DNA of 50,193 bases from positions 1-50,193 of IMG/VR virus record IMGVR_UViG_3300037439_000206; one strand, written 5' to 3'. The DNA comes from a virus. Taxonomy: Duplodnaviria > Caudoviricetes. The notes under the pieces were generated by a model, which saw only the letters and a program-made list of their open reading frames with translations, did no database searches and was not told the DNA's origin. A program made the position numbers and the translations under genes. Position 1 is the first letter of the stretch. Each line of letters begins with the position of its first letter. Below, piece by piece: positions 4,733-32,454 of this stretch.

Positions 4733-5365
4733 ATGATCCGCAAGACCGCTCTGCTGGCCGGCGCCGTCCTGGCGCTGTCCGTTATGACAGCCCCGGTCGC
4801 ACTGGCCCAGGACGACAGCACCAGCTGCGACGTGGCCAAGGACAGTGTCGCGAAGCTGGAGAAGAAGCTCGACGTGGCCGTGTTCGACGAGCGCGTGAAG
4901 GAGACCGAGAAGCGAGACGAGGCCAAGCGCGCGCGCGACGCCGCACAGGTCGACGTCGACGAGTTCGTCGCCGGCGAAGGTACTCCGACGCTCGATGAGC
5001 TGAAGCGGATCCTCAAGGACGCCAAGGAGACCCTCCGCGACGCCCAGGAGAAGCTCAACAGCGACTCGAACAAGCTCGTCGGACTGCGCGCCCAGGTCAC
5101 GTTGGCCATCGCCGAGCGCGACGAGGTGTGCGGTGGCGTGACCACCACACCCGCGACCCCCGAGCCGGAGAACGACGTCGACTGTGACGAGGTGGGGGCC
5201 AGCGAGGCGCAGCGCATCCTGGACGCCGACCGCAACGACCCGCACAACCTGGACCAGGACAACGACGGCATCGCGTGCGAGATCGACGAGGTGCTGGTCG
5301 ACGACGATGACGACGAGGTCGTCGTCCCGTCCGGTGGCGTGGCCACCGGCGGCGGCCCGGCGTGA
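4733..5365 (+). CDS. Secreted protein with coiled coil, Excalibur-like Ca-binding motif and C-terminal VPSGGVATGGG; probable sortase F substrate
   Basis: AGGAG RBS, Sec signal ending ALA-Q, DVDCDE...LDQDNDGIACE motif; coupled to the sortase by a GTGA overlap. Confidence 0.8.
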   Translation: MIRKTALLAGAVLALSVMTAPVALAQDDSTSCDVAKDSVAKLEKKLDVAVFDERVKETEKRDEAKRARDAAQVDVDEFVAGEGTPTLDELKRILKDAKETLRDAQEKLNSDSNKLVGLRAQVTLAIAERDEVCGGVTTTPATPEPENDVDCDEVGASEAQRILDADRNDPHNLDQDNDGIACEIDEVLVDDDDDEVVVPSGGVATGGGPA

Positions 5366-5961
5366 GACTGCTCGCCCTCCTGCTCGGCGCCGCGCTCCTG
5401 GCGGGGTGCGGCGCCGAGTTCGTCGACGAACCACCGCGCGAGCCGCGGATCCAGGTCGTCGACCCGCCGTCGGTCGTCGACCCGACCGCGATCAGCATCC
5501 CGAAGATCGGCGCGCAGTCGTCGCTGATCCCGCTCGGCCTGACCGAGACGAACGAGCTCGACGTCCCACCGGTGAGCGAGCCCGGCCAGGCGTCTTGGTA
5601 CGCCGGCCGCGACCCTGCGTTCGACGGCGACGAGTGGCAGCCGGGCGAGAACGGGCCGGCCATCATCGCGGGGCATGTCGACGGGACCGGTCCGGACGGC
5701 CGCAAGGGCTACCCGGGCGTGTTCGCCCGGCTGACCGAGCTGGCCCCGGGCGACCAGATCGTCATCGAGCGCTCGCCGAAGGCCCCGCTCACGTTCGTGG
5801 TCACCGGCGTCGAGCAGGTGAAGAAGGCGGCGTTCCCGTGGGACCGGGTGATGGCCGGAACCGATACGCCGACGTTGCGCCTGATCACCTGCTCGGGACC
5901 GTTCCAGCGGAGTACAGGTCACTACGTCGAGAACACGATCGTCTGGGCCGAGCTCGGGTGA
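5362..5961 (+). CDS. Class F sortase with lipoprotein signal
   Basis: LLAGC lipobox; ISIPKIG, ASWY, PGENGPAIIAGHVD, LRLITCSG and HYVENTIV motifs typical of actinobacterial class F sortases. Confidence 0.9.
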   Translation: MRLLALLLGAALLAGCGAEFVDEPPREPRIQVVDPPSVVDPTAISIPKIGAQSSLIPLGLTETNELDVPPVSEPGQASWYAGRDPAFDGDEWQPGENGPAIIAGHVDGTGPDGRKGYPGVFARLTELAPGDQIVIERSPKAPLTFVVTGVEQVKKAAFPWDRVMAGTDTPTLRLITCSGPFQRSTGHYVENTIVWAELG

Positions 5962-8347: not shown

Positions 8348-9931
8348 TTAGCGTCCCGCACCCGGCTGCTTGCCGTCGAGCGCCCAACGGAGCGCACCGG
8401 TGGCCGCGTCCACAAGATCGTCATTCACCTTCGGTGACGGGAACATCACCATCTCCCGCTCCAGCTCGGTGTGCTCGATCGCGTGGAACACCCGGCCGGT
8501 CTCGTACCACTGCAACGCCTGCTCGCACCGGTCGCGCTTGCTGTCGCTGGACCAGTCGGTCTCCAGCCGGACGTGCCGGGGCAGTGGGTCGTGGCGCGGA
8601 CTGAGCATCTCCCGCCAGCGCTCGCCGCCCTGGTTGCGCTCCACGATGATCGTGCGCAGCGTCGGCTTACGCTCCAGCATCCGATGGATCCGCTGCCGCA
8701 GCGTCTCGGCCGTGATCCGGAACGCCTGGGCGTACTCGATGACCGCGTGCCGTCGGGCCGGGTCCCGCCCGACCACCACGATCGCCGTGCCGTCCGCGCC
8801 GGACTTGTCCGACATCGACGGGTCGATGTACATCGCGTGCTCCCAGACCCCGCCGAAGCTGGCCGAGGTGCGCCGCTGGAACAGCTCCGGGCGCCAGAAC
8901 GAACCGGCCTCGGTCCCGAACGGGCTCGGGTCCAACAGGTAGTTGAGCTGGAACTCGCGCGGCGTCTGCCCGTCGTGGGTCAGGCGCAACTCCTTACCGA
9001 AGTGCGTCTCGGTCAGCGGCCAGCGCTCCGGCCAGATCGAGCGCTCCGCGCCGGTGTCCGGGTCCACCTGCACGCCCGGGAACACTCGGGCGGTGATCCC
9101 GGCGTTCTCCACCCACTCCATCCGCTCCCGGCTGCGGGCGTGCTGGGCCAGGTCGTGGATGACCGAGCCGTAGGACGTGGTGGTGCCCAGGATGATGGCC
9201 GCGGAGTTGTCCGACCCCATCGGCAGCGCCGCCCGGGTGATGGTCGCGATCCGGCTGCGCTTCTCGACCTCGCTCATGGTGTCCTCGAGCGGCTCGATGT
9301 CGTCGAACACCAGCAGGTCCGGCCGGTCCGCCCCGGACTTGCGACCGAGCGTGTTCTCGCCCAGCCCGGACGCGGCGATGGTGCCGCCGTTCGCCACCAC
9401 GGTCGCCTTGGTGTTCGACCCGCCCCGCCCACGGCGCGGGGTCAGTTCCGGGTAGTCCTGGCGCAGGAGCTTGTTGTCGTCGAGCTCCATCCGCAGGTTC
9501 GCGAGCTGGCCCTGGGCCATCACGGACGTGTCGCTGAAGGCCATGAAGTAATGCCGGTGCCCGTGGGCCAGAGCCCACAGCGGCAGGATCAGGAACGCCC
9601 ACGAGGTCTTGCCGATCCCCCGCGGCGCGATCCAGGCCTCCCGCCAGCGCTTCGGCTGTTGCCACTGCTTCGCGGCCCGACACAGCCCGAGGTGCAGTTC
9701 GTTGAACGTCATCACCGGCGGGGTCGAACCCTGGAGTACGAGGTGGTGCGGGAAGTAGACGAGCGCGAACCGCAGCGGTGACTCCCTGGTCCAGTCCCGG
9801 CGGAACTTGGCCGAGGTCGCGATCGAGGGCGTGCGCAGCGGCGCGGTCTCGTTCTCGAACCAGCGGAACCACGGACCGGCCGGCGGCCGAACGACCGGCT
9901 TGGCCGGCGGCGGGACCAGGGACAGGGTCAT
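8348..9931 (-). CDS. terL: Second terminase large subunit (TerL-2), 527 aa
   Basis: Walker A APRGIGKT, Walker B RPDLLVFDDIE, GTT coupling motif, RNase H-like nuclease residues YIDPS, DGTAIVVVG and DDLVDA; ATGA-coupled start at 9931. Confidence 0.9.
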   Translation of the reverse strand: MTLSLVPPPAKPVVRPPAGPWFRWFENETAPLRTPSIATSAKFRRDWTRESPLRFALVYFPHHLVLQGSTPPVMTFNELHLGLCRAAKQWQQPKRWREAWIAPRGIGKTSWAFLILPLWALAHGHRHYFMAFSDTSVMAQGQLANLRMELDDNKLLRQDYPELTPRRGRGGSNTKATVVANGGTIAASGLGENTLGRKSGADRPDLLVFDDIEPLEDTMSEVEKRSRIATITRAALPMGSDNSAAIILGTTTSYGSVIHDLAQHARSRERMEWVENAGITARVFPGVQVDPDTGAERSIWPERWPLTETHFGKELRLTHDGQTPREFQLNYLLDPSPFGTEAGSFWRPELFQRRTSASFGGVWEHAMYIDPSMSDKSGADGTAIVVVGRDPARRHAVIEYAQAFRITAETLRQRIHRMLERKPTLRTIIVERNQGGERWREMLSPRHDPLPRHVRLETDWSSDSKRDRCEQALQWYETGRVFHAIEHTELEREMVMFPSPKVNDDLVDAATGALRWALDGKQPGAGR

Positions 9932-12201: not shown

Positions 12202-12441
12202 TCAGCCCGCCGGGTGCGGCTGGCCGTCGAGCCCGCGGTACTGCGCGGGCAGCACCTCGTCGGCCTTGATGTCGTGCAGCTCCAGGAGCTCCCGGGCGTG
12301 GCGGCGCATCGAGCGCTGCACGCTCGCGCCGATCGCGGTGCCGGCGTCCTGCGCGTTGGCGGCGTCCCAGATCGCGGACGCCAGCGTCTCGGCGGCGACG
12401 TCGCTCTTGGCGATGGTCAGATCCTGCGGTCGAATGGCCAT
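12202..12441 (-). CDS. Hypothetical protein
   Basis: GAGAGGAC RBS; GC-rich third codon positions. Confidence 0.7.
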   Translation of the reverse strand: MAIRPQDLTIAKSDVAAETLASAIWDAANAQDAGTAIGASVQRSMRRHARELLELHDIKADEVLPAQYRGLDGQPHPAG

Positions 12442-12750
12442 GTCGATGTCCTCTCGTGGTGTGCGCTACGCCGGGTCAGGCGTAGCAGGGCGGGATCTTG
12501 CAGTGGCGATCCGCGTAGCAGTGCGCGCAGACGCACCAGCACTTGATGAGTGCACTCGTACCCGGGTCCGCCCCGGGCGCAGTCCGTGGACGCGCCGTCG
12601 GTAGATCCGTTCGCAGATCACCAGCGGCACCACCGAGCACGCGGTCAGGAAGACCAGGACCGCCAGCGCGGTCACTTGTTCGGTCGGGGGTAGCGCGGGC
12701 AGCTCGGCCAATGGCCGGAGACCGCGTCACAGTCGGGGCAGTTCGCCACG

Positions 12751-13071
12751 TCATCTCTCCTCGGCTCGAAAGTGGTCGTCGTTCGCGGTGTCGGCGTCCA
12801 TGTCGACGTGCAGCCGGGCCAGGCCCTCGTGCTTCTCGGGCTTGCGGTTCTCCTGGACGGCGTCCCGGATCGCCTCCTCCAGTTCGCGCCGGGCCAGGTG
12901 CGGGGCCTGCAACAGTCGCACGATCTCGGCCGACAGCGCGCCGATCAGACCGATCGCGCCCGCGAACAATCCCCACACCGGGTTCTCGCCCTGGCTCGAG
13001 TAGACCGTGGCGAACAGCACCGACGGCACGATGACCGAGGCCGCGAGCGGGAGGATCCAGCGCCGGAGCAT
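12751..13071 (-). CDS. 2-TM membrane protein
   Basis: Two hydrophobic helices; TGATG coupling to the upstream gene. Confidence 0.7.
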   Translation of the reverse strand: MLRRWILPLAASVIVPSVLFATVYSSQGENPVWGLFAGAIGLIGALSAEIVRLLQAPHLARRELEEAIRDAVQENRKPEKHEGLARLHVDMDADTANDDHFRAEER

Positions 13072-13331
13072 CAGGACTCCAGCGTCTTGCGTCGCCAGTG
13101 CCGGGTGGCCGGGCCGCGCACGATCTCGTGCACCGAGCTGCGGTCCAGCCCGACCGCGGCGCAGATCGTGGACACGGACACGTGGTGCGTGTTGCGCAGC
13201 GTGTACATGGCCTTGTTGCGTTCCTGGCGCTTGGCCTCGGCCGCGACCTCGAGCTCTACGGCCTCGGTGGCGAGCCGCCCCGCCGCAGCGAGCCCCGCCG
13301 CGACCTCGTCGGTGTCTTCCATGGTGGTCAT
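13071..13331 (-). CDS. HTH DNA-binding protein
   Basis: SVSTICAAVGLDRSSVHEIV helix-turn-helix. Confidence 0.75.
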   Translation of the reverse strand: MTTMEDTDEVAAGLAAAGRLATEAVELEVAAEAKRQERNKAMYTLRNTHHVSVSTICAAVGLDRSSVHEIVRGPATRHWRRKTLES

Positions 13332-13630
13332 CGTAGCCTATTCCCTACAGTCGACAAAGGGTGGTCGGACCGGCGGGTCGTCCAGTCGATGCCGACCGTC
13401 CACATCCCGAGGTAGCCCCGGCGCCAGCCCTGGTCGACGGCCGAGGCCCGGTCCGGGGCATCGAACTTGGACCGGATCTTGCGCACCTCCCAGCGGATCG
13501 CGTCCTCGGTGGTGCGCAGCCGGACGGCCATCTGTGAGTCGGTCTGCCCCTTGGCCGCCAGTGACAGGATCTCGACCTGGCGCACGGTCAGGGCCTCGCC
13601 CAGGGGCGCCGGCCGTCTCGGGGTGCTCAC
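13328..13630 (-). CDS. Stand-alone LuxR/GerE-type HTH regulator
   Basis: LTVRQVEILSLAAKGQTDSQMAVRL...IRSKF...RASAV...GYL; GTG start at 13630. Confidence 0.8.
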   Translation of the reverse strand: MSTPRRPAPLGEALTVRQVEILSLAAKGQTDSQMAVRLRTTEDAIRWEVRKIRSKFDAPDRASAVDQGWRRGYLGMWTVGIDWTTRRSDHPLSTVGNRLR

Positions 13631-13929
13631 GGCGTCTCCCCGAGCAGGGCCCGCCCGATGGCCTCGACCTCGTCCGAGGGCAGGCATCGAAGCTCGACAC
13701 CGACTTGCGCCAACCGGGTCCCGACGTACAGGTCGACGGCCACGTCCGCGGCCTTGCGGAACCGGTCCGGCCAGTCGATCGGGGCGGGGTCGCTGCTCTT
13801 TCGGCCGCAACCCTGCTCCAGGCAGTAGGCGACATCCGCGCCCCACTCGACTCGGCCGCGCCGGTGCTGGCTGCATGTCCAGAAGCGGACGCGGGCACTG
13901 GCCAGCGCCTCAGGCAGCTCCTCGCTCAT
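13627..13929 (-). CDS. Array micro-gene, hypothetical (Cys/His)
   Basis: Starts at the repeat's ATG with its GGAGG RBS. Confidence 0.7.
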   Translation of the reverse strand: MSEELPEALASARVRFWTCSQHRRGRVEWGADVAYCLEQGCGRKSSDPAPIDWPDRFRKAADVAVDLYVGTRLAQVGVELRCLPSDEVEAIGRALLGETP

Positions 13930-14150
13930 CGGTCCTGCCCTCCGGCCTCGACGGGAACGAGCCGCCACGACGCGACGAACGTCCCGGCAGTGCCCGGCTT
14001 CCGGCCCGGGTCCTCGTCGGCCTGGAACGTGACCGTGATCAGGTCGCCGGTGACCTGCCAGCCGAACCAGCCGTCGAGGGCGTCGTTGTAGTCGCTGGCC
14101 GCGTCCTCGCCGTGCTCGGAGAGGTTGCGCAGCATCTGCTCTGGGGTCAT
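13926..14150 (-). CDS. Array micro-gene, 74 aa, ends GGQDR
   Basis: Bounded by junction repeats. Confidence 0.7.
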   Translation of the reverse strand: MTPEQMLRNLSEHGEDAASDYNDALDGWFGWQVTGDLITVTFQADEDPGRKPGTAGTFVASWRLVPVEAGGQDR

Positions 14151-14386
14151 CGGTCCTGTCCTCCGTCCAACCCGAGCTGCGCCATCGCCGTCCGGACTGC
14201 CAGGTGCGATGCCTCCGCCCACGCAATGCCGGCACGCGTGCGGCCGTCGTGCGGGTTTGCGTCGCGCGTGATGCCGTACGTGTCGTACAGGCAGTCGGCG
14301 AGGTCCTGGCGCTGCTCGGGGGTGAGGTTCCCGAGCAGGACCCGGGTCCGGACGACATGCTGGTCTGCAAGCGTCTCGTCGCTCAT
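14147..14386 (-). CDS. Array micro-gene, 79 aa, ends DGGQDR
   Basis: Bounded by junction repeats. Confidence 0.7.
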   Translation of the reverse strand: MSDETLADQHVVRTRVLLGNLTPEQRQDLADCLYDTYGITRDANPHDGRTRAGIAWAEASHLAVRTAMAQLGLDGGQDR

Positions 14387-14529
14387 CGGTCCTGCCCTCC
14401 GTCCTCGTCGAGCGTGTCTTCTGCGGCGTCCAGCTCCCGGCGGAGCGCGGCCACCTGCGCGCGCTGCTCGGCGCGGGCGTCGGCCTCCTCCTCGGCGGTC
14501 ATGGTCCTGATCTCCCACTGCTTAGCCAC
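14383..14529 (-). CDS. Array micro-gene, 48-aa coiled coil, ends DGGQDR
   Basis: Translated by hand; bounded by repeats. Confidence 0.65.
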   Translation of the reverse strand: MAKQWEIRTMTAEEEADARAEQRAQVAALRRELDAAEDTLDEDGGQDR

Positions 14530-14647
14530 GGTCCTGTCCTCCGTCCTCGTCGTCCTGGTCAGGCCCCGGGCACATGTGATTGGCGCGGGAGTCGGTCATG
14601 CACTCGCACACCGGGCAGAGCACGTAGTCCTCATGGAGCCAGCTCAT
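14522..14647 (-). CDS. Array micro-gene, 41 aa (CPVC...HMC), ends DGGQDRG
   Basis: Translated by hand; bounded by repeats. Confidence 0.65.
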   Translation of the reverse strand: MSWLHEDYVLCPVCECMTDSRANHMCPGPDQDDEDGGQDRG

Positions 14648-14796
14648 CGGTCCTGCCCCTCGTCCTGCCCCTCGCCCTGCCCGAGCAGTGCCCGCCGGAC
14701 GTCGTCGGTCGTGAGCGTCGCCCCGCCAGGTGTGCCGTGCTCCATGTCGCGCACCTCCAGATCGTCGAGGAGGTTGGCCACGTCCAGGTCGTTCAT
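14644..14796 (-). CDS. Array micro-gene, 50 aa, ends EGQDEGQDR
   Basis: Translated by hand; bounded by repeats. Confidence 0.65.
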   Translation of the reverse strand: MNDLDVANLLDDLEVRDMEHGTPGGATLTTDDVRRALLGQGEGQDEGQDR

Positions 14797-15125
14797 CGGT
14801 CCTGTCCTCCGTCCTCGTCCTCGTGCGCGCGGGCCAGCGCAGCGAGCGTGTTCGCCAACGCCGGGTAGCCGCTCCTTCGAAGGCGTTCCGCCTGGTTCGG
14901 GTGGAGCTGGAACACCTGCACGACGGCCTCGGCCACCTCGTCCCGTGCGCGCAGCTCGGCCAGTTCGGCGGCCATCTCGTCCATGGCGTCGGCGGCCATC
15001 AAGTAGCCGTGCCGGACCCCGGCCAGGAACGAGTCGTGCGGGTTGCCATCCAGCTTCGCGGCAGACGCCCGAAAGTTGGCCGGGTACTTTGCCACGTCGG
15101 CCGGGGCGGACTGGTCGGCGGTCAT
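14793..15125 (-). CDS. Array gene, 110 aa, ends DGGQDR
   Basis: TGATG-coupled start; ends in a repeat. Confidence 0.7.
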   Translation of the reverse strand: MTADQSAPADVAKYPANFRASAAKLDGNPHDSFLAGVRHGYLMAADAMDEMAAELAELRARDEVAEAVVQVFQLHPNQAERLRRSGYPALANTLAALARAHEDEDGGQDR

Positions 15126-15250
15126 CAGTCGCATTCCTCGTGTCGCAGGATGGCGGGGTCGTCAGTGACGAGCTGCTCGCCGCAGGTGTCGCAGTCCTTC
15201 ACGTGCTCGTCGACCCACTGGCCAGGCCGCCGGGCGGTGTGCTCGCTCAT
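15125..15250 (-). CDS. Array micro-gene, 41 aa (CDTC...HEEC)
   Basis: Starts at the repeat's ATG. Confidence 0.6.
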   Translation of the reverse strand: MSEHTARRPGQWVDEHVKDCDTCGEQLVTDDPAILRHEECD

Positions 15251-15316
15251 CGGTCTCGCCCTCCGGTCGAGGCCGGCGGCTCGTTCACGTTCATGTTCAT
15301 GTCTCTCGTCCTCTCG

Positions 15317-15499
15317 TCAGCAGTTCGGGCACGGGCACACGCCGCCCCGGGCAGTCCGGCCGCAGGCGTTGCCCTTGTTCCAGCCGCACATCTGACCGCA
15401 CGCACGCGGAGCGTCCTGTGGCCGGGCGGAGATCTGGGCGGCGATCCGGCGGTTGCACGAGCAGCGTCCACGCCGGCCGCAGATCTGGCACTTGCTCAT
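15317..15499 (-). CDS. Cys-rich small protein (10 Cys in 60 aa)
   Basis: GAGAGGAC RBS; CQIC, CSC, CGQMC and CPCPNC motifs. Confidence 0.7.
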   Translation of the reverse strand: MSKCQICGRRGRCSCNRRIAAQISARPQDAPRACGQMCGWNKGNACGRTARGGVCPCPNC

Positions 15500-15845
15500 C
15501 TCGATGTCCTCTCGCCCTCGGTCAACGGCACCGGTCGGCCCGCTCCCGTTCCTCGTCCTCGGACAGCGAGCCGGAGTCCGGGTCCGCCTCCTCGACCGCG
15601 ATCCGGTGCAGCCGGGCCCGCAGGGCGTCGATCTCGCGCAGCGGCGCGGCGTCGAAGAAGCCCTGCGCGGGGTCGATCTCGCGCATCAGGACTCCAAGTA
15701 GGCATCGGCCGCCGTGCGAGCGTCCTCGATCGTGGCCGCCTCGTCGGCGATCCACTCAAGAACACGGTGTGCGTCGGGCTTGCGTGCCATCTCGGTCACG
15801 ATCTCGTCGAGCGTCATATCCTCGTCCTCTCGCTCTGTTAAGTCC

Positions 15846-15874
15846 AGTGTAGGGCACGACCGACATCAGGTCAA
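15846..15874 (-). promoter_or_regulatory. Sigma70-type promoter TTGACC-N17-TACACT driving the micro-gene array
   Basis: Consensus-like boxes with 17-nt spacing, just downstream of a hairpin. Confidence 0.8.
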
Positions 15875-15880
15875 GAGAGA

Positions 15881-15905
15881 GGCCCCGCCCGGTTCGGGCG
15901 GGGCC
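15881..15905 (-). terminator. Intrinsic terminator hairpin
   Basis: GGCCCCGCCCG/CGGGCGGGGCC stem followed by TCTCTCTT on the minus strand. Confidence 0.75.
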
Positions 15906-15911
15906 GGCCGA

Positions 15912-16208
15912 TCAGCGGCGCGAGGCCTCGGACCTCCAGAAGCGGACTGAGTCCCGGTCCTTCTCGGCGGCCCGCGCCGTGGCCGTAGCGACGTCCTGGA
16001 GCATCCCGGACGGGATCGCGGTCAGGTCCATCGTGACGAACAGGTGAGCCCGGATCTCGAACAGGTCGGCCAGCGCGGACGCGCGCAACCGGCGGGCACC
16101 GGGCTTGAGACCCCGGCCGTAGTCGTTGGCCTCGATCACCTGGGAGATCCGGGCACTGACGCCCGGGATCGTGTCCAGGTCGGCGAGCGTCTCGACCATC
16201 TCGTTCAT
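15912..16208 (-). CDS. Hypothetical protein in its own promoter-terminator unit
   Basis: GAGAGGAC RBS; flanked by a promoter and a terminator. Confidence 0.75.
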   Translation of the reverse strand: MNEMVETLADLDTIPGVSARISQVIEANDYGRGLKPGARRLRASALADLFEIRAHLFVTMDLTAIPSGMLQDVATATARAAEKDRDSVRFWRSEASRR

Positions 16209-16237
16209 GCCCTCGTCCTCTCGTTGCTGTCCCCTGT

Positions 16238-16266
16238 AGGTTACACCCGACAATGGGGCTACGCAA
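16238..16266 (-). promoter_or_regulatory. Promoter TTGCGT-N17-TAACCT, preceded by hairpin 16267-16297
   Basis: 17-nt spacing; hairpin GAGGGACCCCGG/CCGGGGTCCCTC abuts the -35 box. Confidence 0.7.
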
Positions 16267-16694
16267 GAGGGACCCCGGACTGCACCCGGGGTCCCTCGTC
16301 ACGAGCACGCACACGCTGGCCGGGATGACCTCGTCGTGCAGGTCCAGGCCGAGATACTCGATCACCACATGCTGCACGTCGTCGGGCTGCAGCATGCCGA
16401 GATCGAGCTCGAGATCCTGGGCGGTCATGTCCTCAGCCATCAGAGGTCCCCTCGCGCTGCGACCTCGTTCAGGGTCTCGGACATCTCCGCGACGGCTTCC
16501 TGAAGTCGGTCGAGCTCAGCTACGACCGTGTCCAAGGCATGTTGCGCGTCAGCGGGAACCGTCCCCGCCAGGATCGCTACCGCCGCCTGTACCTCGTCGA
16601 GCTCCTCAGCCACGGTGCACCTCCGTGTCCGCCGCCCACTCGGCACGGTACGAGTCTGGCTGCTCGGGGTCGTGTCGATGCCGCCGTTCCTCGG

Positions 16695-17021
16695 TCACGT
16701 CGTGTACCTCGACCGCTCGAGCGAGACCACGAGCGCGGCCAGGACCACGACCGTGACCGTGGCGCCGGTCAACTGCCAGGCCGCGATGCCGCCGAGCCAG
16801 GCCAGCCAGGCGCCGAGCGCCTGCTCGGCGGTCCGGTCGGCAGGGTTCACCCAGCCGAACGGCCGGGTGGTCTCGCTGATCGCCAGCGGGACGGCCGGTG
16901 GGGCGGCGACCACAGCGGGCACCGGCTCGACGGCCGGGGCCTCGTCTGCGTCGTCGCCCCCGCCGCCGAACGCGAGCACGAGCGCGACGCCGACCACGAC
17001 GACCAGCTCCCTGACCCTCAT
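16695..17021 (-). CDS. Membrane protein
   Basis: N-terminal and C-terminal hydrophobic segments. Confidence 0.6.
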   Translation of the reverse strand: MRVRELVVVVGVALVLAFGGGGDDADEAPAVEPVPAVVAAPPAVPLAISETTRPFGWVNPADRTAEQALGAWLAWLGGIAAWQLTGATVTVVVLAALVVSLERSRYTT

Positions 17022-17245
17022 CTCAGACCTTGCCCCATCCGTCGCTCGGGTTGCCGCCGTGGAGGTCGTCGATCATCTTGTCGTCGGCGAGGATGTCCTC
17101 GATCGAGTCCGGGTCCTTGCTCATGTGCGCGTCCTCTCGTTGTCGGTCGTGCGGGAGTTGGTCGCGGCCAGGTGCGGGGTCGGTCGGCACTCGCACCCGG
17201 CCGAGGTCTTCGTTACCGCCGTTGCCATCCGTGCTTGTCCCCTGT

Positions 17246-17274
17246 AGGCTACACACGACACGACAGGGTGTCAA
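17246..17274 (-). promoter_or_regulatory. Near-consensus promoter TTGACA-N17-TAGCCT
   Basis: Exact TTGACA, 17-nt spacer, TAnnnT -10 box. Confidence 0.85.
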
Positions 17275-17290
17275 CGAGAGGACTGAGACC

Positions 17291-17852
17291 ATGGACGAGA
17301 CCTACGACTGGGAGCCGGCAATGGCCGAACTGCGCACACGGATCCTGCGGTACGAGGCGATGGAGGGCCGCGCCCGACAGCTGGCCGTCACGCCCACCCT
17401 GGGCGGCGCGGCGATGACGCAGGCGGCGGCCGGCCGGTACGTGCTCGGTCTGTCCGCGATGCCGGTGCAGGTGACGTCGTGATCCGGACGGTCGCGAGCA
17501 TCGTCGCGCAGCTGCGCGACGGCTACGGAAGTGCCGACGGTCGCACGGCCGCCGACCTGATCGAGCGGCTGGCCGACGAGCGCGACCAGGCCCTGATCCG
17601 CGCCGAGGCGGCCGAGGCCGAGCTCGAGGCCTACCGCAGGGCCGAACGGAAGGTGTCGTGAACCCCTGCGGCGCGGCACTGGACCGCTGCCAGTGCGTCG
17701 GCCCCGTGCCCCGCACGGCGGCCGAGGTCACGGCGGCGCACCGGGCGTCCGTCGCCCGAGCGCGGCGGTCCGGGTTCGCCGCCCAGCCGATCCCCGGGTG
17801 GGCGGTCGCGGTTCTACTGCCCGATGCCTGGACCGAGGAGAAGGTGGCATAG
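17291..17852 (+). CDS. Three small coupled hypothetical genes (17291-17482, 17479-17661, 17658-17852) oriented against the early arm
   Basis: GAGAGGAC RBS at the first ATG, GTGA overlaps, terminator downstream. Confidence 0.65.
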
Positions 17853-18526: not shown

Positions 18527-18846
18527 GCGATCCCCTCCTCGTCGATGAGCGCGACCAGGCCGCGCCCGTGCTCGGTCAGCCACCACCGGCGGTGCCAGAG
18601 GTGGTCGTCGCCGGTGGCCGTGACCAGCTCCAGCGCGACCAGCCGGGCCAGGGTCTGGCGCTGCACCCGGTTGGTCTTGCGCCCGATCTCTCGGCCGATC
18701 TCGACGGCAGTGGCGCCGGGCACGGCGGCGAGCAGCCGCAGCGTGGTCAGGCAGTTCGGGCTGTAGTGCGCGCCGATCGGCTGGTCGGCCTGGGCCAGCG
18801 CGTCGTACCCGCGCCAGACCTGCGGCGGGCGGGTCACGGTGGTCAT
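18523..18846 (-). CDS. Winged-helix (MarR-like) protein
   Basis: TAVEIGREIG...LARLVALELV...LTEHGR. Confidence 0.7.
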   Translation of the reverse strand: MTTVTRPPQVWRGYDALAQADQPIGAHYSPNCLTTLRLLAAVPGATAVEIGREIGRKTNRVQRQTLARLVALELVTATGDDHLWHRRWWLTEHGRGLVALIDEEGIA

Positions 18847-20204
18847 GCTGCTGTCCTCTCGATTTCGGCTCGGCGGTCCCTGGCCGCCGAGGTGTGCCCT
18901 TCGGTCCAGGTCTCCTTGTGCTCGCGCCAGAGCGCGAGCAGCGCCTCGTACGTGTCCGCCTCTGTGATCAAGGTGAGCACGAGGTCAACTCGTTGTGTCG
19001 CCTGTAGGCCACATGTTACATTGTCCTCATGGCCGAGACGATCCGCTTCCGCACCCACGCCGAGCTCAAGGCCACTGGCCTGCCCGACTGCAGGTGCGGG
19101 CACCCCGCTTCGATTCACGGACTGCTCGCCCAGCATGTCGGCGGGTCCGGCTGCTTCCGTACCTCGTGGAAGGACGGCAGATTGGATCGCATGCGCGTCT
19201 TCGCCGGTGCGTGCCCGTGCGACACGTACCGGCCGACCGGCAGGGCGTGACGCGCGCTCGCGCTGCTTCGGGTCGTTCACCCGCCACTGCGCCAGGCGGC
19301 AGTAGTCGGCGGACAGGTCCACGCTGACTCCGTGCCGGCCGAGCATCGTGGCAACCAGGGCAGTGGTGCCTGTGCCCCCAAATGGATCGAGAACCGTGCC
19401 GCCGCTCGGGGACCAGCCCAGGATCAGCCTGCGCGGCCACTCCATCGGGAACGCCGCGAAGTGGTCGATGCCCAGCTCGGCGGGCACGCGCAGGGGCTGA
19501 GTGGCGATCTCCCACACGCTGCCGGGCAACTTCCCGAGCGAGTCGGGCTGCCGAACGTATTCCTCGCGGATCGAGTCGACCGCCGCGAAATACTTGGGCG
19601 ACTTCGTCAGGTGTACCCAGTCCTCGTGCGAGCGGCGCACCCGATCCGTCACGCTTTCCGGCATGCCGTTCGGCTTCTGCCAGATCACGACGGCGCGGGC
19701 GATCAGGCCGAGTTCGTCGACGCACGCGATCCGGTACCGCTCGGGCAGCAGTAGGAGGGACTTGGGCGGCACCCCGTACTGCGGATCACGGCGCGCAGCC
19801 TGCGAGGTGGCGTAGGTGGCCGCCTGCGCGCGGTCTGCGCGCTGGCCGGTCTTGCCCTGCGGCCCGAACTGTCCGGGGCGCTGGCTGTACTTGTCGCCGA
19901 GGTTCAGGAAGATGCTGCCGCTCGGCTTGAGTACGCGCACCATCTCGCGGGTGCAGCCGACCAGCGCGGCGATGAACTCGGCGGGGGTGGGCTCGGCCCC
20001 GATCTGCCCGTCGTAGTGCTCACCGCCGTCGGTGTACGACCTGAGGCCGAAGTACGGCGGGCTAGTGACGATGAGGTCGACGGATTCGTCGGGGAGCGGG
20101 AGCCTGCGGGCGTCGCCACGCAGGACCACCGGCATCGGTCCCTGAAAGGACATCGCCCCCGTACCTCCTTTCCTGACAGTCACTCGGGGAGCGTCCTTGC
20201 TCAT
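18843..20204 (-). CDS. DNA N4-cytosine/N6-adenine methyltransferase (beta class) with a C-terminal extension; start may be 20153
   Basis: LIVTSPPY catalytic motif precedes the VLDPFGGTGT SAM motif; HFAAFP. Confidence 0.9.
   Translation of the reverse strand: MSKDAPRVTVRKGGTGAMSFQGPMPVVLRGDARRLPLPDESVDLIVTSPPYFGLRSYTDGGEHYDGQIGAEPTPAEFIAALVGCTREMVRVLKPSGSIFLNLGDKYSQRPGQFGPQGKTGQRADRAQAATYATSQAARRDPQYGVPPKSLLLLPERYRIACVDELGLIARAVVIWQKPNGMPESVTDRVRRSHEDWVHLTKSPKYFAAVDSIREEYVRQPDSLGKLPGSVWEIATQPLRVPAELGIDHFAAFPMEWPRRLILGWSPSGGTVLDPFGGTGTTALVATMLGRHGVSVDLSADYCRLAQWRVNDPKQRERASRPAGRPVRVARARTGEDAHAIQSAVLPRGTEAAGPADMLGEQSVNRSGVPAPAVGQASGLELGVGAEADRLGHEDNVTCGLQATQRVDLVLTLITEADTYEALLALWREHKETWTEGHTSAARDRRAEIERTAA
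19029..19250 (+). CDS. Small zinc-finger-like protein nested antisense within the methyltransferase ORF
   Basis: CRCGH...H...C...CPC pattern; TACATT -10 box at 19017-19022 ends 6 nt before the ATG (leaderless). Confidence 0.65.
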   Translation: MAETIRFRTHAELKATGLPDCRCGHPASIHGLLAQHVGGSGCFRTSWKDGRLDRMRVFAGACPCDTYRPTGRA

Positions 20205-20578
20205 CGTGCGTCCTCTCGTGGTGGTAGTTCGAGCACGGCACGCCGGCCGAGAATGTGCGCACGGGCGGCCGGGCCGGCGGCCAGCGGCCAGAGCTCGCGC
20301 AGCTCGCCGACGAATCGGGCGGTCGCGATCGCGCGCAGCACCGGGTCTTCGGTGCGGGCGATGTCCCGTTTGAGCCGCGTGGTCGTGCGCTCGATCAGGT
20401 CGCGGAGCGCGGACTGAGAGAAGACCTCGCGCCGGGCCTCGTCGTAGTAGAGGCTCTCGGCCTCGTCCCGGTACCACGTCCGCCCGTCCGGGCCCAGGAT
20501 CGTGGCCGGGCCCGGGGGCCGGGGCTTCGGGGGCGCGTCCTCGATCGGGGCCAGGCCGCGGACGGGTCGGCGGGTCAT
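20201..20578 (-). CDS. Hypothetical protein
   Basis: ATGA overlaps on both sides. Confidence 0.7.
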   Translation of the reverse strand: MTRRPVRGLAPIEDAPPKPRPPGPATILGPDGRTWYRDEAESLYYDEARREVFSQSALRDLIERTTTRLKRDIARTEDPVLRAIATARFVGELRELWPLAAGPAARAHILGRRAVLELPPREDAR

Positions 20579-21264
20579 GCGGCACGCTCCGGCAGGGCCG
20601 CCAGGTGCGTGCGCACCTGGCGGCCGATGTGCTCCGTGTACAGGGGAGGTATCGCCTCGACGAGCTCGGCGTTCGTCATCCAGTCGATGCCCATGGCCGC
20701 ACAGCGCAGGGGGAACTCGCCGGTGTAGTTGCAGTTGCCGTGCACGCCGACTACGGACGCGAGCCCGCCGCGCTTGACGATGCGCGAGTCGAGCGACCGG
20801 AACCGCGGCGTCTGCCAGTCGTGGTCACAGGCCGGTGCGACGAGCTCGACGTTGGACTCGAACAGCCGGTGCCGGCGCACGTCCAGCCCGAACGACGAGC
20901 CGCAGTAGCGCACCGGGTCGACGAGGTGGGGCCGAGCGAACTCGACATTCTCGATCACGTACGGCAGCCCGGTCGCGATCAGGTGTTCCCGCGTCGGGGC
21001 GATGAGGTCGGGGTAGGTCGCGCCGTGGTGCTTGCGAGCCTTGCCCGATGCGGTCGTGTACGCCTGGCACGGTGGCGACGCCGCGATGACGTCGAACTCG
21101 TGGCCGTGCTTCCGGACGAACTCGAGCGCGTCGGCCTGGTGGAACTCGAACGGGTAGCGAGGCTGTGGCGCGATGTCGATGCCTACGACGTCGAACCCGG
21201 CCCGGCGGTAACCCGTGCTCGCGCCGCCTGCGCACGAGAAGAGGTCAAGCAGCCGGGGCCTCAT
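20575..21264 (-). CDS. Short DNA C5-cytosine methyltransferase
   Basis: LLDLFSCAGG, ASPPCQ, VIENV, RRHRLF and EAIPP motifs. Confidence 0.9.
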   Translation of the reverse strand: MRPRLLDLFSCAGGASTGYRRAGFDVVGIDIAPQPRYPFEFHQADALEFVRKHGHEFDVIAASPPCQAYTTASGKARKHHGATYPDLIAPTREHLIATGLPYVIENVEFARPHLVDPVRYCGSSFGLDVRRHRLFESNVELVAPACDHDWQTPRFRSLDSRIVKRGGLASVVGVHGNCNYTGEFPLRCAAMGIDWMTNAELVEAIPPLYTEHIGRQVRTHLAALPERAA

Positions 21265-22586: not shown

Positions 22587-23057
22587 TCAGAACGGAGCGA
22601 CGTCCGAGTCGTTGGCCGCCGACATCGGGATGATCCCGGCCTCGATCAGATCGGGGCCCTTCCACGCGGCGTCGCCGTCCCCGTAGAAGCGCTCGATCAG
22701 CTCGTAGTCGTCGTCGTTCGGCGTCTGGGCCGCGACCCACTCGGTGGCGCCGGTCTTCTTCAGCTCCAGCCGGGCAGCCACCTCCTTGTCGCCGTTCGCC
22801 CAGGCGCGCCGGAGCGGGCCGGTCACACCGCGACCGATGCTGCGGTAGCCGCGCAGCACCTTGCCCTTGTCCGGGCCGGAGCAGACGACCATGTCCGCGG
22901 TCACCGGCTGGACCTTGCCGTTGGCCAGCTCGATCTCCTCGTGCAGCTCGACCGTCTTGAAGACGACCTTGGTCTCCTTCTTCGCGAGAGCGAGCAGGGC
23001 CCGCTTGATGTCATCGAAGTCGGTGTCGCCACCGGAAGCGGCTCGCGTCAAAGCCAT
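22587..23057 (-). CDS. Putative single-stranded DNA-binding protein
   Basis: Beta-rich core, acidic tail ending DSDVAPF, adjacent to the exonuclease. Confidence 0.65.
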   Translation of the reverse strand: MALTRAASGGDTDFDDIKRALLALAKKETKVVFKTVELHEEIELANGKVQPVTADMVVCSGPDKGKVLRGYRSIGRGVTGPLRRAWANGDKEVAARLELKKTGATEWVAAQTPNDDDYELIERFYGDGDAAWKGPDLIEAGIIPMSAANDSDVAPF

Positions 23058-23152: not shown

Positions 23153-23356
23153 ATGACCACACCTTCCTCTTGCTCGACGTCGCCGCCCGGGCCGTGGCTG
23201 ACGCGGGCACAGGCCGCAGCACGGCTACAGGTCTCGCCCGCGACCATCGACCGCTACGCCCGCGAAGGACTGCTGCCTCGGCACCGAGCGCGCCCCGGCT
23301 GGCCGGCCCGCTACCACATGGACGAGGTCGACCAGGTCCAGAAGGGCAAGCCATGA
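23153..23356 (+). CDS. Excisionase/MerR-like HTH protein
   Basis: WLTRAQAAARLQVSPATIDRYAREGLL...RYHMDEV. Confidence 0.85.
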   Translation: MTTPSSCSTSPPGPWLTRAQAAARLQVSPATIDRYAREGLLPRHRARPGWPARYHMDEVDQVQKGKP

Positions 23357-24513
23357 ACCCCTCGGCCGAGATCTTCGAGACCCTGGTTCAGCTCCCGGAC
23401 CGGACCCCGGCCCAGCGCGCGGACGACGAGCGGTCGGCCGCGATCCTGCGGGACGCGGACGCGCTCCGTGGCGACGAGGAAGTGTTCACGTCCGAGGACG
23501 TGGACCTGGCCATCGCCGCCGAGCTGCGCACGCCCGCCGAGGAGTTCGCCCCGAGCGCGAAGCGGCCGCGGGCGATCCTGCTCGAGCGGGCCGAGGAACT
23601 GGAGGCGTCGTGAACGACACGACGAGCGGGCCGGCGCACGAGATCATCCACGTCGAGAGCCGTGGCGACCGGGTGCTCCTGAGCCTCGGTCCGGACCGGG
23701 GTACCGAGCTCGACATGCCGTGGCAGACCGCGCTCTGGTTCGCGCGCGAGCTGGAGAAGGCGGGGCGAGCGGCGTGGGAGGTCGCGTGCGCGGACATCGA
23801 CGAGGTGATCCCGTGACCCTCCCCCGCGGCGTGACCATGCTGCTGAACAAGGCCGGCGACGGCTGGACGCACCGCGTGCGCCGTGCCGCCGGCACGGTCG
23901 AGGCCCAGACCTACGGCGACCCGCGCGGCGACGGCACTCGGCCGAAACTCACGGTCGAGGTCCCGGCCGAGTCCATCGGCCTGCGCTTCGACCACCCCGA
24001 CGGCCGGGCGGCCGTGGCGATCTGGGCCAGGCGCGAGGACGCGACCTCGTTCGCGTTCGCCGGGGCGCAGCGTGGCCGGCACGCGGACGAGAACGTGCCG
24101 GTGACCTTGAACGCGACCGAGCTCGGGGTGTACCTGAGCGGGACGGAGGAGGAGTCGTGACGACCTGTCCGAGGTGCGGGGCGAAGCGCGACGAGCCGTG
24201 CACGTACACCGCTCCTCGCAGCCCGTACTACGCGGAGGAGCAGCTGCGAACCTGGCCGTCGATGCACGCTCAGTTCGAGCGCGTCGGCTCGCCGACCAAG
24301 CGCTGGCACGAGGAGCGTCTGCGGGTGGCCGGGCAGCAGGTCAAGCGACGCTCGGCCGCGGAGCGTCGGGAGCGAGAACTCGCCATGGCGGAACGTGCTC
24401 GTCGACGGCACCCGGCGTTCGCGATCCGGCACGCCGAGGCGGCCTGGGATCGGCAGGAACGGCAACAGCTCGTGACGTGGCTTGCGCGCTACGCCGACGT
24501 GCTGACCGGATGA
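23353..24513 (+). CDS. Four coupled hypothetical genes (23353-23613, 23610-23816, 23813-24160, 24157-24513; the last has CPRC...C...H)
   Basis: ATGA/GTGA overlaps and RBSs. Confidence 0.7.
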
Positions 24514-24566
24514 CCACGTACGCGGCCGCGATCGCGGCCCGGCTGCAGGGACGAGAGGACGAGGAC

Positions 24567-25097
24567 ATGAGCAAGGACGAGGACATCGAACGCGCAAGGG
24601 CGCTGTTCGATCGGCTCCGCGACGACTACGTGAACGTACTCCTGAGCCAGGACGCGGACGTCGGCCGGGTGGCCGAGCTGGAACGGGCACGTGAGGCCGA
24701 CCTGGCCGCGGTGACCGAACTACAGCGCAAGCTCATGGACGCCGAGCGCGAACTGGCCGCGGTGAAGGAGACGCTCTGGCAGGTCACCGCGCACCGGAAC
24801 GCGGCGGCCAACCGGGGCGAGGAGCTGGAGCAGCTCCTCGCCGTCGCCTACGTCGCCCGCGAGGTCCCGTGGACGGACGTGGCCGCGGGGATGATGACGA
24901 TCGCCCGGGACGGCACGCCGTGGATGGTCGAGACCTGGGTCGAGGGCGACTACCTCAAGCTGCGCAACGGCACGGGCACGTTCTCGAAGTACCCGAAGTC
25001 TGGCGAGACCGTGCGCGTGCTCGTGCCGTACGTGACCGACGAGCAGGCCGAGGGCCTGGTCGCGTCCGAGCTCGGCGGACGAGAGGTGGGGTCGTGA
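24567..25097 (+). CDS. Coiled-coil protein ending EVGS (start 24510 also possible)
   Basis: GAGAGGACGAGGAC RBS; ends in a junction repeat. Confidence 0.7.
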   Translation: MSKDEDIERARALFDRLRDDYVNVLLSQDADVGRVAELERAREADLAAVTELQRKLMDAERELAAVKETLWQVTAHRNAAANRGEELEQLLAVAYVAREVPWTDVAAGMMTIARDGTPWMVETWVEGDYLKLRNGTGTFSKYPKSGETVRVLVPYVTDEQAEGLVASELGGREVGS

Positions 25098-25625
25098 ACG
25101 TGGATCACGTGCGAGTGCCGTCCAACTGCATCGGGTGCGTCACGGCCGCGGACGTCGACATGGTCGAGCACGGTGCGTACGTCGTGCACGTGCACCCCGC
25201 GTGCCCGGTACACAGCGAGCTCGTGCAGCTTCGGGCCGAGGTACGGCGCCTGCGGTCGGGTGCCACCGGGCAGTGCAAGGTCACCGAGGAGTGGACACAC
25301 CTGCCCGGCACCAACGTGGAGATCCGACTCCGCCCGCCGATGCGATCCGGCTACGTCGGGTACCGGACGGAGGTGGGGTCGTGAACACCGACGAGGCGCT
25401 GGAGCGTGCCGACGAGATCGATGGCATGTTCGCCGTGCCGACGGTCTCAGGCGCGCTCGCGGCCGAGGTGCGGCGGCTGCGGGCGGTCACGCGCGAACAA
25501 CTGCCTCGGGTCGAACAGGTCTCCGAGCAGATCAACGCCGAGCACGAGTTCCTGTCCGAGATCTTGGACGACGCCGTGCACGCCTGGCGGACTGCGCTCG
25601 GCGGGACGGAGGTCGGGTCGTGAAC
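25077..25625 (+). repeat. Three copies of junction repeat GGACG(A)GAGGTSGGGTCGTGAAC, plus a degenerate copy at 24141-24160
   Basis: Copies at 25077-25099, 25365-25386 and 25604-25625; each encodes EVGS-stop overlapping GTG-AAC. Confidence 0.85.
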
Positions 25626-25985
25626 GTGGACGAGGCGCTGGAGATGGCTGAGACCTGGACCGCACTGCCGGACGCGAACGGGGCCGCGCACACGCTCGCG
25701 GCCGAGGTGCGGCGGCTGCACACCTGGGACGGGCTGATGTCCTTGCTCGACGAGCACTACCCGTCCGACGTCATGACGGGCGAGTCAGGGGATCCCGGTC
25801 CGCGGATCCTGCGCCTGACGCGAGAGGTGCACCTGCTCAAGCTCGTGGTGGACCAACTCCGCGCCATGCGCGATCGAGCCGAACGGGTTCGTGACATGGC
25901 GGACGCGCACCCGGGCTACGGCAAAGGACGCGGGCAGGCCGCGCGGGAGATCCTCGGCGAGTCCACAACCGACGGGGGCGCGTAG
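25094..25985 (+). CDS. Three array genes (25094-25384, 25381-25623, 25620-25985) sharing an LxAEVRRL motif
   Basis: Each starts GTG AAC within the repeat. Confidence 0.75.
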
Positions 25986-30957: not shown

Positions 30958-32454
30958 GTGAAGACCGAAGCCGCGCCCATCCGGATCGAAGCACCGCTCG
31001 ACAAGCTGCGCCGACTGCGCGAGCTTCAGCGCCAGGTAGACGAGCTGCATTGGGCAGATGCACAACGCTGGCGCGAGGACGGCTCGGCCTGGGTGCGCGA
31101 GCGCCTGGACGAGCACGTCTGGTCCAAGCAGGACGAGGTGCTGGCCGGCATCCGCGACCACCGGCGCACCGCGGTCCGCTCCTGCCACGGCGTGGGCAAG
31201 AGCCACATCGCCAGCCGAGCGGTGGCGTGGTGGCTGGACACCAACAGGCCCGGCGAGGCGTTCGTGGTCACCACCGCGCCCACCTTCGCGCAGGTGCGGG
31301 CCATCCTCTGGCGCTACATCCGCCAGGCGCACCGCAAAGGCGCGTTGTCCGGCCGGGTCAACCAGACCGAGTGGTCGATCGACGGCGAGCTGGTCGCGTT
31401 CGGGCGCAAGCCCGCCGACCACGACGAGGGCGCGTTCCAGGGCATCCACGCCAAGCACGTGCTCGTGATCCTGGACGAGGCCTGCGGCATCCCCGAGGAC
31501 CTCTGGATCGCCGCGGACGCGCTCACCACCAACCCGGGCTGCCGGATGCTGGCCATCGGCAACCCTGACAACTCCTCGAGCCACTTCGCCCGGGTCTGCA
31601 AGCCGACCTCGATGTGGCACCAGATCGGCATCTCGGCCTACGACTCGCCCAACTTCACCGGCGAGCAGGTGCCCACCGAGCTGGCCGAGCTCCTGATCCA
31701 CCCGGACTGGGCCGAGGAGAAGCGCCTGGAGTGGGGCGAGGACAACCCCATCTACCGGGCCAAGGTGCTCGGCGAGTTCTCGGCCGACGACCCCGGCAAG
31801 GTGGTGCGGTTCTCCGATGTCGCCTCCTGCCGGATGCCTCAGGACACACCGCGTACCGCCGTCGAGCTCCTACCGATCGAGCTCGGTGTCGACGTCGGTG
31901 GTGGCGGCGACGAGACCGTCATCCGGGAGCGGCGTGGCCCGGTCGCAGGCCGGGAGTGGCGCGAGCGCAGCGATCAGCCGAACACGATCGCGCCCCTGGT
32001 GCTGCGGGCCATCCGGGAGACCGGCGCCACCCGCGTAAAGATCGACTCCACCGGCATCGGCTGGGGGCTCGTCGGCGAGCTGGTCAACCTCGGTGCCACC
32101 GGCGCGCACCAGGCCGTCATCGTCGGCGTGAACGCGGCCGAGGCCAGCCTCGAACCCGAGGTGTACAAGAACGCCCGCGCCGCCATGTGGTGGATGGCCC
32201 GGCTGCACTCCCAAGAGCGCACCTGGGACCTGTCCACCATGGAGAACGCGGACGCGACCGTGGCGCAACTCCTTGAACCGGGCTGGCTCCTGGACCTGCA
32301 GGGCCGGATCCAGGTCGAGAAGAAGGAAGACGTCATCGAGCGGCTCGGCCGCTCCCCGGACAACGCCGATGCGCTGTTGTTGGCGTACTACAACCCGCCC
32401 GGCGACGCGGCCTCCGCGCTCGACTGGCTCGCGCAATCGAAACGTGCAGCGTGA
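30958..32454 (+). CDS. terL: Terminase large subunit (TerL-1)
   Basis: SCHGVGKS Walker A, LVILDEA Walker B, IGNP, GVDVG...DET and SPDNADA motifs. Confidence 0.93.
   Translation: MKTEAAPIRIEAPLDKLRRLRELQRQVDELHWADAQRWREDGSAWVRERLDEHVWSKQDEVLAGIRDHRRTAVRSCHGVGKSHIASRAVAWWLDTNRPGEAFVVTTAPTFAQVRAILWRYIRQAHRKGALSGRVNQTEWSIDGELVAFGRKPADHDEGAFQGIHAKHVLVILDEACGIPEDLWIAADALTTNPGCRMLAIGNPDNSSSHFARVCKPTSMWHQIGISAYDSPNFTGEQVPTELAELLIHPDWAEEKRLEWGEDNPIYRAKVLGEFSADDPGKVVRFSDVASCRMPQDTPRTAVELLPIELGVDVGGGGDETVIRERRGPVAGREWRERSDQPNTIAPLVLRAIRETGATRVKIDSTGIGWGLVGELVNLGATGAHQAVIVGVNAAEASLEPEVYKNARAAMWWMARLHSQERTWDLSTMENADATVAQLLEPGWLLDLQGRIQVEKKEDVIERLGRSPDNADALLLAYYNPPGDAASALDWLAQSKRAA

Follow-up and report, generated by a model that had tools for sequence, protein, structure and literature searches.

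Does the mosaicism of phage genomes arise at conserved linkers, or from illegitimate recombination whose products are then filtered? The question is old, and clear cases of linkers in actinobacteriophages are few. The window analysed here, all 50,193 bases of the IMG/VR virus record IMGVR_UViG_3300037439_000206 (Caudoviricetes; direct terminal repeats, 70% GC), poses it in compact form between positions 13627 and 15300, where small open reading frames (ORFs) on the minus strand meet at copies of one short repeat, so that the linker is the translation junction itself. An earlier note on this DNA, made from the letters alone, had proposed a repeat-spacer array in which whole genes would be inserted, deleted or swapped at the repeats without an integrase. 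From the comparison of the window with related arrays, we think it probable that the repeat is a gene-junction sequence that was multiplied in a variable small-gene region, and that it supplies the homology for swap, gain and loss of genes by short-homology recombination. As the linker is a translation junction, every swap would keep the chain expressible.

Seven copies of a 22-nt repeat are present in the window, all on the minus strand, all exactly at gene junctions as the earlier note had it, and all confined to a 1.35-kb block (13926-15268). Six lie within three mismatches of the 22-mer (at 13926, 14147, 14383, 14525, 14644 and 14793), compared with none in 100 shuffles; the seventh (15247-15268) has four mismatches, and in the remainder of the 50-kb genome the closest match has at least six. 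While the 22-mer was confirmed, the true shared sequence is longer, with a consensus of about 29-31 nt (GACGAGGACGGAGGGCAGGACCGATGAGCGA) that extends into the first codons of the next gene. A Shine-Dalgarno (SD)-type site lies 8-9 nt ahead of the next start. GGAGG and an ATGA stop/start overlap are each found in six of the seven copies, with GAGGG in the copy that lacks GGAGG. The encoded tails are as described, GGQDR four times and EGQDR, GGRDR and GGQDRG once each, the last in a copy that is missing one base and precedes a gene starting with GTG.

An ATGA overlap with the SD inside the upstream gene is the anatomy of termination-reinitiation, and by this process the ORFs between the repeats would be translated as a chain from the upstream promoter. 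Such coupling does not by itself create the motif, since all 36 other NTGA-coupled junctions of the genome differ from the 22-mer at 9-16 of its 22 positions. The repeats are spaced 119-454 nt apart and the spacers are coding; the ORF sizes given earlier (41, 110, 50, 41, 48, 79, 74 and 100 amino acids (aa)) were all recovered. The first spacer contains two of these ORFs (41 and 110 aa), and their TGATG overlap at 15125 is a junction within the block that has no repeat. No palindrome was found in the repeat, and no stable fold or hairpin on either strand (six folds covering four of the seven copies, z -1.06 to 1.05); there is no Rfam match in 12400-17400 and no promoter match inside the array.

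Exact-pattern scans recovered 2 viral, 1 genome and 9 metagenome loci. Four of the nine metagenome loci, which carry an exact 21-mer, are relatives of the window (L032, which is the same sequence as G402, and L035 to L037); the other five are single-copy and otherwise dissimilar, and were excluded from the counts. There are four distinct related arrays with 11 copies, in G402 (three), L037 (four), L035 (two) and L036 (two), giving 18 copies in five arrays with 2-7 per array, 16 of them at gene junctions and 2 inside a fused ORF. The closest relative, G402 (52.8 kb; the same sequence as L002, L018, L030, L031 and L032), is colinear with the window, most core blocks having 68-83% nucleotide identity. 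It keeps the promoter-like site, the Cys-rich ORF and the helix-turn-helix (HTH) gene that bound the window's array, and the genes between these anchors differ from those of the window. In L036 the repeat has an HTH_17 gene on one side and a cytosine methylase on the other, and both its gene context and its phage context are different; the record names of L035 and L036 share a prefix, and these two may therefore not be independent. A looser 18-mer matched 26 viral loci, with array-protein matches only in L018 (G402 again). Near-copies with at most two mismatches occur in 30 of 401 genomes of the family around G001 (reversed control, 0), a tally that includes G124, in which the match is a tandem repeat without relation to the array; nothing here is based on it. 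These near-copies are single, at ordinary junctions or in coding DNA, and array genes are found only in G001. Because single near-copies stand at ordinary bacterial junctions, the motif is a natural form of the SD-plus-ATGA junction, and what calls for an explanation is the clustering of copies. Further pattern scans gave no additional array, protein-seeded locus searches returned G402 only or nothing useful, and a search seeded with the 100-aa ORF matched only itself; L029 was rejected as a relative, its match being an unrelated LuxR one. No cultured phage close to the window was found when the array was compared by blastn with 50,697 phage records (short matches only, best coverage 2%).

Comparison of the arrays reveals exchange both at the repeat and elsewhere. 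The window's 74-aa gene has a counterpart in L037 (89% over 246 nt); the match begins and stops in a repeat, and the flanking genes differ at either end. Between L037 and G402, identity is 99% along the 151 nt that lead up to a repeat and 97% along the 158 nt that follow from a later one, and between these flanks L037 has two genes where G402 has one 32-codon stretch. Related phages thus carry different genes between the same repeats, which makes the repeat the likely crossover point for gene swaps. When shared blocks of at least 100 nt inside the arrays were counted, with two contig ends excluded, 5 of 10 block ends fell in the repeat, which makes up 9% of the array DNA (binomial p about 0.001, the ends not being independent). 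Between arrays with unrelated neighbours, the identity of repeat copies reaches 100% over 29-31 nt. The same is seen of intragenic boxes of 30-52 nt, which reach 100% identity across arrays within unrelated flanks, and the 100-aa ORF family, present in all five arrays, has its N-terminal and middle parts exchanged. Because block ends also lie inside genes, many of the ORFs are chimeras, and what is exchanged is often less than a whole gene. The ORFs had been called unrelated. Within the window this holds, yet the families of two of them turn up again in relatives, in chimeric form. Likewise, the exchange of whole genes at repeats that the earlier note proposed is partly supported, by varying gene content, by half of the breakpoints and by one repeat-to-repeat move; the other half of the breakpoints, of a kind the note itself had named as adverse, are elsewhere. 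As judged from these alignments, whole-gene swapping at the repeat is real, but is only part of the picture. The boxes below gene level show a route by which small orphan proteins are reshuffled.

These patterns are consistent with a simple course of events. A coupling junction would have been duplicated as new genes became fused to junction sequence. Each copy supplies an SD-type site and a stop/start within the last codons of the upstream gene, and an ORF placed between two copies would join the translated chain from the upstream promoter. Entry of a new gene would happen through a rare non-homologous event in which the gene's 3' end becomes attached to a junction already present; this would be why family members elsewhere have other tails. 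Once flanked, a gene could move when two copies of about 30 nt cross over, be they in one genome or in two phages infecting the same cell, an event to which the repeat-to-repeat pattern points, and the intragenic boxes of 30-50 nt would be used likewise to give chimeric proteins. Each recombination product would remain translatable. A dedicated recombinase would be unnecessary; the candidates, and they are candidates only, are the phage exonuclease, the single-stranded DNA-binding (SSB)-like protein and endonuclease VII, or host RecA. The SSB-like label of the ORF at 22587-23057 is weak, being based on an acidic tail ending in PF and a sub-threshold likeness to DUF669, and the exonuclease has no PDB sequence match.

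Several observations weigh against recombination at the repeat. The five remaining block ends lie at intragenic boxes (four) and at a plain junction (one), and shared-block ends are pulled through any sequence common to both sides, which inflates the count at the repeat. The evidence comes from five arrays, three of them on contigs of 1.0-2.4 kb, with one clean whole-gene transfer. Deletion variants joined at repeats, which the earlier note proposed to look for, did not appear: no repeat-to-repeat joint was seen in the contigs of the one public run that contains this DNA (X1, perhaps its source; no RNA data set with this DNA was listed), although contigs drop rare variants, and the two weak joints in those contigs are not at repeats and have 21-nt sides. 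About 30 nt is short for RecA-type recombination, and the RecT, ERF, Rad52 and AAA_24 families were not found in the genome. A bolder version of the same reading would make the repeat a selected, standardised translation adaptor common to different phage lineages of one host group, which together with the boxes would form a communal, recombinase-free parts system that moves whole genes and builds chimeric small proteins, an analogue of the integron made from coding junctions. We regard this version as tentative and rather doubtful.

It could instead be that illegitimate recombination inserts or replaces genes and that survivors are those keeping a downstream translation signal, the repeats being relics that host no crossovers. 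We judge it unlikely. The 74-aa family comprises 12 proteins with 44-83% identity, in which W and G residues are invariant, and only the members in the window and L037 end in GGQDR; the other tails of the remaining 10 mean that a non-homologous join has happened at least once. Half of the block ends lie elsewhere than the repeat, no annealing protein was found, and most mosaic boundaries are without boundary sequences according to PMC3029335. Against such filtering, flanks with 97-99% identity break off inside the repeat both before and after a replaced segment, one gene lies between repeats in two different contexts, and copies up to 100% identical over 29-31 nt join unrelated neighbours. The repeat might also be a regulatory site, like the start-associated sequences (SAS) of mycobacteriophages, at which a factor of the phage or the host binds to control translation or transcription, with shuffling as a side effect. 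Its conservation reaches past the SD core, as in the cluster K SAS (PMC3203893), and a LuxR-type HTH gene follows the array; but SAS, as described there, are spread over the non-structural half of the genome in 11-19 copies, whereas the window repeat is confined to one block, varies from 2 to 7 copies among arrays, has lost its stop/start in two G402 copies that lie inside an ORF, and has neither palindrome nor stable fold. A role of this kind seems to us decidedly improbable.

The earlier note had also allowed that the shared GGQDR tail could be a functional peptide, and a C-terminal tag for degradation, packaging or targeting of unrelated proteins would fit its occurrence, followed by a stop, in 13 of the 18 copies. 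The question then becomes whether conservation acts on DNA or on peptide, and the copies point to DNA. All 18 use GGG or GGA for the second Gly, whereas these two make up 150 of 541 Gly codons (28%) in nine core genes, although the copies share descent and so are not 18 independent draws; codon choice tracks the DNA motif and not genome usage. Amino-acid variants (EGQDR, two GGRDR, GGQDRG) and two read-through forms are tolerated among the copies, near-copies stand singly at ordinary bacterial gene junctions, and the tail is missing from 10 of the 12 members of the 74-aa family and present in 1 of 5 of the 100-aa family. The absence of the tail from most homologues, together with the DNA-driven codon choice, argues that GGQDR is a by-product of the junction and no required tag, and we hold a functional tag to be very improbable. 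The 74-aa cargo gene is itself likely to encode a real protein recruited from a wider pool, to judge from its family. The ratio of non-synonymous to synonymous polymorphism (pN/pS) is 0.73 for this gene and 0.42-0.45 in sub-regions, but 0.92 for the HTH control. Least probable of all is a site-specific system akin to the integron, with a dedicated recombinase acting in cis or in trans. Unrelated promoterless ORFs are indeed arrayed behind one promoter, and the same repeat occurs in the different phage context of L036. However, in keeping with the earlier note's expectation that no integrase is involved, there were 0 matches each to tyrosine integrase (PF00589) and IntI (TIGR02249), and none to serine recombinase, in this genome, whose completeness is estimated at 63%; the repeat forms no hairpin on either strand and matches no Rfam family, and exchange also occurs at unrelated intragenic boxes. 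Multiplication of a junction sequence that then offers homology for exchange remains the reading we prefer.

The features of the locus are collected in the table. The leader ORF of 17 aa and the promoter that the earlier note placed upstream of it were both found as given, but three other ORFs lie between them. The ribosome-binding site and start context of the 17-aa ORF resembles that of the 183-aa first ORF of L002, and the ORF is likely a collapsed first cassette or a coupling leader, a role in which it is reminiscent of the leader in published bicistronic designs. The promoter-like site is a member of a phage-wide promoter-like repeat (family D15).

Table. Features of the small-gene array and its flanks, listed in the direction of the minus strand (aa, amino acids).
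Feature	Position	Strand	Remarks
GC hairpin	15905-15881		just upstream of the promoter-like site
Promoter-like site TTGACC-17-TACACT	15846..15874	-	1 found against 0.2 expected; kept in G402; predicted function
Cys-rich 60-aa ORF	15317..15499	-	upstream anchor; 58% identity to syntenic L002 ORF
17-aa ORF ending in repeat copy 1	15247..15300	-	probable collapsed first cassette or coupling leader
Repeat copy 1	15247..15268	-	4 mismatches, GGRDR
41-aa ORF	15125..15250	-	linked to next ORF by plain TGATG, without repeat
110-aa chimeric ORF	14793..15125	-	N-half as in two database proteins (P0003/P0004); C-half as in L031, L035, L037
Intragenic shared box 1 (ELRARDE)	14916..14958	-	in window, G402, L035 and twice in L037
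Repeat copy 2	14793..14814	-	exact; homology to relatives reaches upstream to 14840
50-aa ORF	14644..14796	-	repeats at both ends
Repeat copy 3	14644..14665	-	2 mismatches, EGQDR
41-aa ORF, end GGQDRG	14522..14647	-	
Repeat copy 4	14525..14546	-	one base missing, GTG start, 8-nt overlap
48-aa ORF (39 aa from alternative ATG 14502)	14383..14529	-	
Partial eighth repeat copy	14516-14499	-	ahead of alternative ATG of 48-aa ORF
Repeat copy 5	14383..14404	-	exact
79-aa ORF	14147..14386	-	repeats at both ends
Repeat copy 6	14147..14168	-	exact
74-aa gene	13926..14150	-	clearest mobile cassette; 12-protein family, tail in 2
Repeat copy 7	13926..13947	-	1 mismatch
100-aa chimeric ORF	13627..13929	-	family in 5/5 arrays; GGQDR tail present or absent
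Intragenic shared box 2 (PIDWPDRFRKAADVA)	13737..13788	-	98% identity over 46-52 nt in G402, L036, L037
Intragenic shared box 3 (EVEAIGRAL)	13636..13676	-	
LuxR/GerE-type HTH gene	13328..13630	-	downstream anchor; PF00196 E 3e-6; 57% identity in L002

The cargo had been thought to consist of host-takeover or anti-defence proteins, and no cargo ORF has a family match that names a function. None was named by PHROGs, Pfam (matches at E 0.01 or above only), NCBIfam or PADLOC (one weak match, E 0.004), and the proposal is a guess, fitted only by the small size of the ORFs and their position behind promoter-like sites. Elsewhere the window encodes terminase, portal, tape measure, amidase, polymerase/primase, exonuclease (phrog_466), endonuclease VII and two DNA methyltransferases. 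The methyltransferase genes form an adjacent pair (18843-21264, minus strand) for which the G402 match is partial or absent. There are two genes like the terminase large subunit, both kept in G402, one adjoining the portal (8348-9931, minus strand; phrog_2) and one at 30958-32454 (plus strand; phrog_38), the latter with best cultured matches of about 32-35% identity that include the satellite phages MiniFlayer and MulchRoom. A sortase-domain gene (5362-5961, plus strand; PF04203, E 2e-19) lies in the lysis region, and 12441-12751 is a stretch of 310 nt between two conserved genes with no confident ORF and no Rfam match. A Pseudonocardia metagenome-assembled genome bin also includes G402, a weak hint at the host group.

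Some further observations concern junction repeats and promoter-like sequences more generally. A second small-gene array in the window (23353-25985, plus strand) has another junction repeat (GGACGGAGGTSGGGTCGTGA), with copies at 24141, 25365 and 25604 and a looser one at about 25077; its tails are TEVGS or REVGS, and the first 9 nt of its repeat are common with the main repeat. None of its eight ORFs has a match in the G402 stretches compared, and its LAAEVRRL family matches L036. In an unrelated viral contig of 55% GC (L080, 2299-2530), two close small-gene ends have similar DGGQ tails, which suggests that junction repeats arise convergently. At L031 4554-5105 (G402), two repeat variants have an insertion that takes out the stop, fusing three segments into a 183-aa ORF, a possible route from an array to a multi-part protein. 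The promoter-like repeat (TGTCG...TACA; minus strand, 15841-15865, 16228-16252, 17236-17260 and 13335-13360), which precedes several small-gene groups and also occurs in G402, may be a second, PeSL-like class of linker (PeSL, promoter early stem-loop, as in T4-type phages).

The design seen here is not unique, and published analogues exist, which suggests a general feature that has been little described rather than a single odd case. The PeSLs themselves are intergenic elements of about 100 bp that combine a sigma-70 promoter with a stem-loop terminator, and mini-circles have been shown experimentally (Arbiol et al. 2010, PMC2839356). As with PeSLs, a repeated expression signal in a hypervariable region is here linked to gain, loss and replacement of ORFan genes without an integrase; unlike them, the window's element is a 30-nt coding translation junction with neither promoter nor hairpin, known here from sequence. 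In cluster K mycobacteriophages the SAS, which are 13 bp long and dispersed in 11-19 copies, are proposed translation signals (PMC3203893); cluster EF Microbacterium phages carry SAS as well (PMC7302621). They resemble the window repeat in being asymmetric, in standing at the ribosome-binding position before small non-structural genes and in being conserved past SD pairing, but the window repeat is confined to 13926-15268 and differs in sequence from the cluster K consensus GGGATAGGAGCCC, and the available SAS accounts describe neither fixed stop/start overlaps nor swap points. Coupling by termination-reinitiation at ATGA overlaps is established (Huber et al. 2019, PMC6728339) and, as in the window, places the SD inside the upstream gene, but it is a general feature without a repeated sequence.

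The coding spacers, of varying length, are unlike those of CRISPR arrays, which are uniform, short and non-coding, and there is no Rfam match. Integrons consist of the integrase IntI, the site attI and cassettes with attC, an imperfect palindrome that folds as a hairpin in single-stranded DNA. Like an integron, the window has tandem promoterless ORFs, each followed by a repeat and read from an upstream promoter; unlike one, it has no IntI or attC hairpin, its repeat is coding, and exchange occurs also inside genes. The array is not a PeSL, integron or CRISPR array, and its likeness to SAS is one of position only. We found no published account of an array in which one repeat serves at the same time as C-terminus, SD, stop and start, in a search that lay largely outside subscription journals.

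Closer parallels come from two actinobacteriophage systems. In Island3, genes 67 and 68 share 3' ends of about 50-60 bp at which recombination has occurred (Pope et al. 2011, PMC3029335). In both that phage and the window, unrelated neighbouring genes have the DNA of their last codons in common, and a gene is gained or lost by recombination at these ends (in the window, probably so), although Island3 has two copies of about 60 bp and one event, compared with seven copies of about 30 bp and an array common to several phages. In the Arthrobacter cluster AU phages (Giantsbane), each gene of a shuffled five-gene cassette (genes 37-41) is flanked by a 32-bp repeat that is present about six times, with gene deletions and translocations among relatives for which homologous recombination was proposed (bioRxiv 10.1101/2020.01.10.891226). 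The window likewise has repeats of about 30 bp flanking genes of one cassette in an actinobacteriophage. The cluster AU repeat, compared by its description only, is described as intergenic, whereas the window repeat is wholly coding and supplies SD, stop and start; intragenic boxes are present in the window arrays, and the available part of the cluster AU account reports none. All of this belongs with the concept of boundary or linker sequences (Botstein; Clark et al. 2001), in which a short conserved junction sequence is repeated across related phages, as it is here in 18 copies and five arrays, and in which mosaic junctions coincide with that sequence, as they do here, in a small sample, at five of ten block ends and for one gene moved from repeat to repeat. 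It is therefore likely that the feature is a variant of this known boundary-sequence idea rather than an integron.

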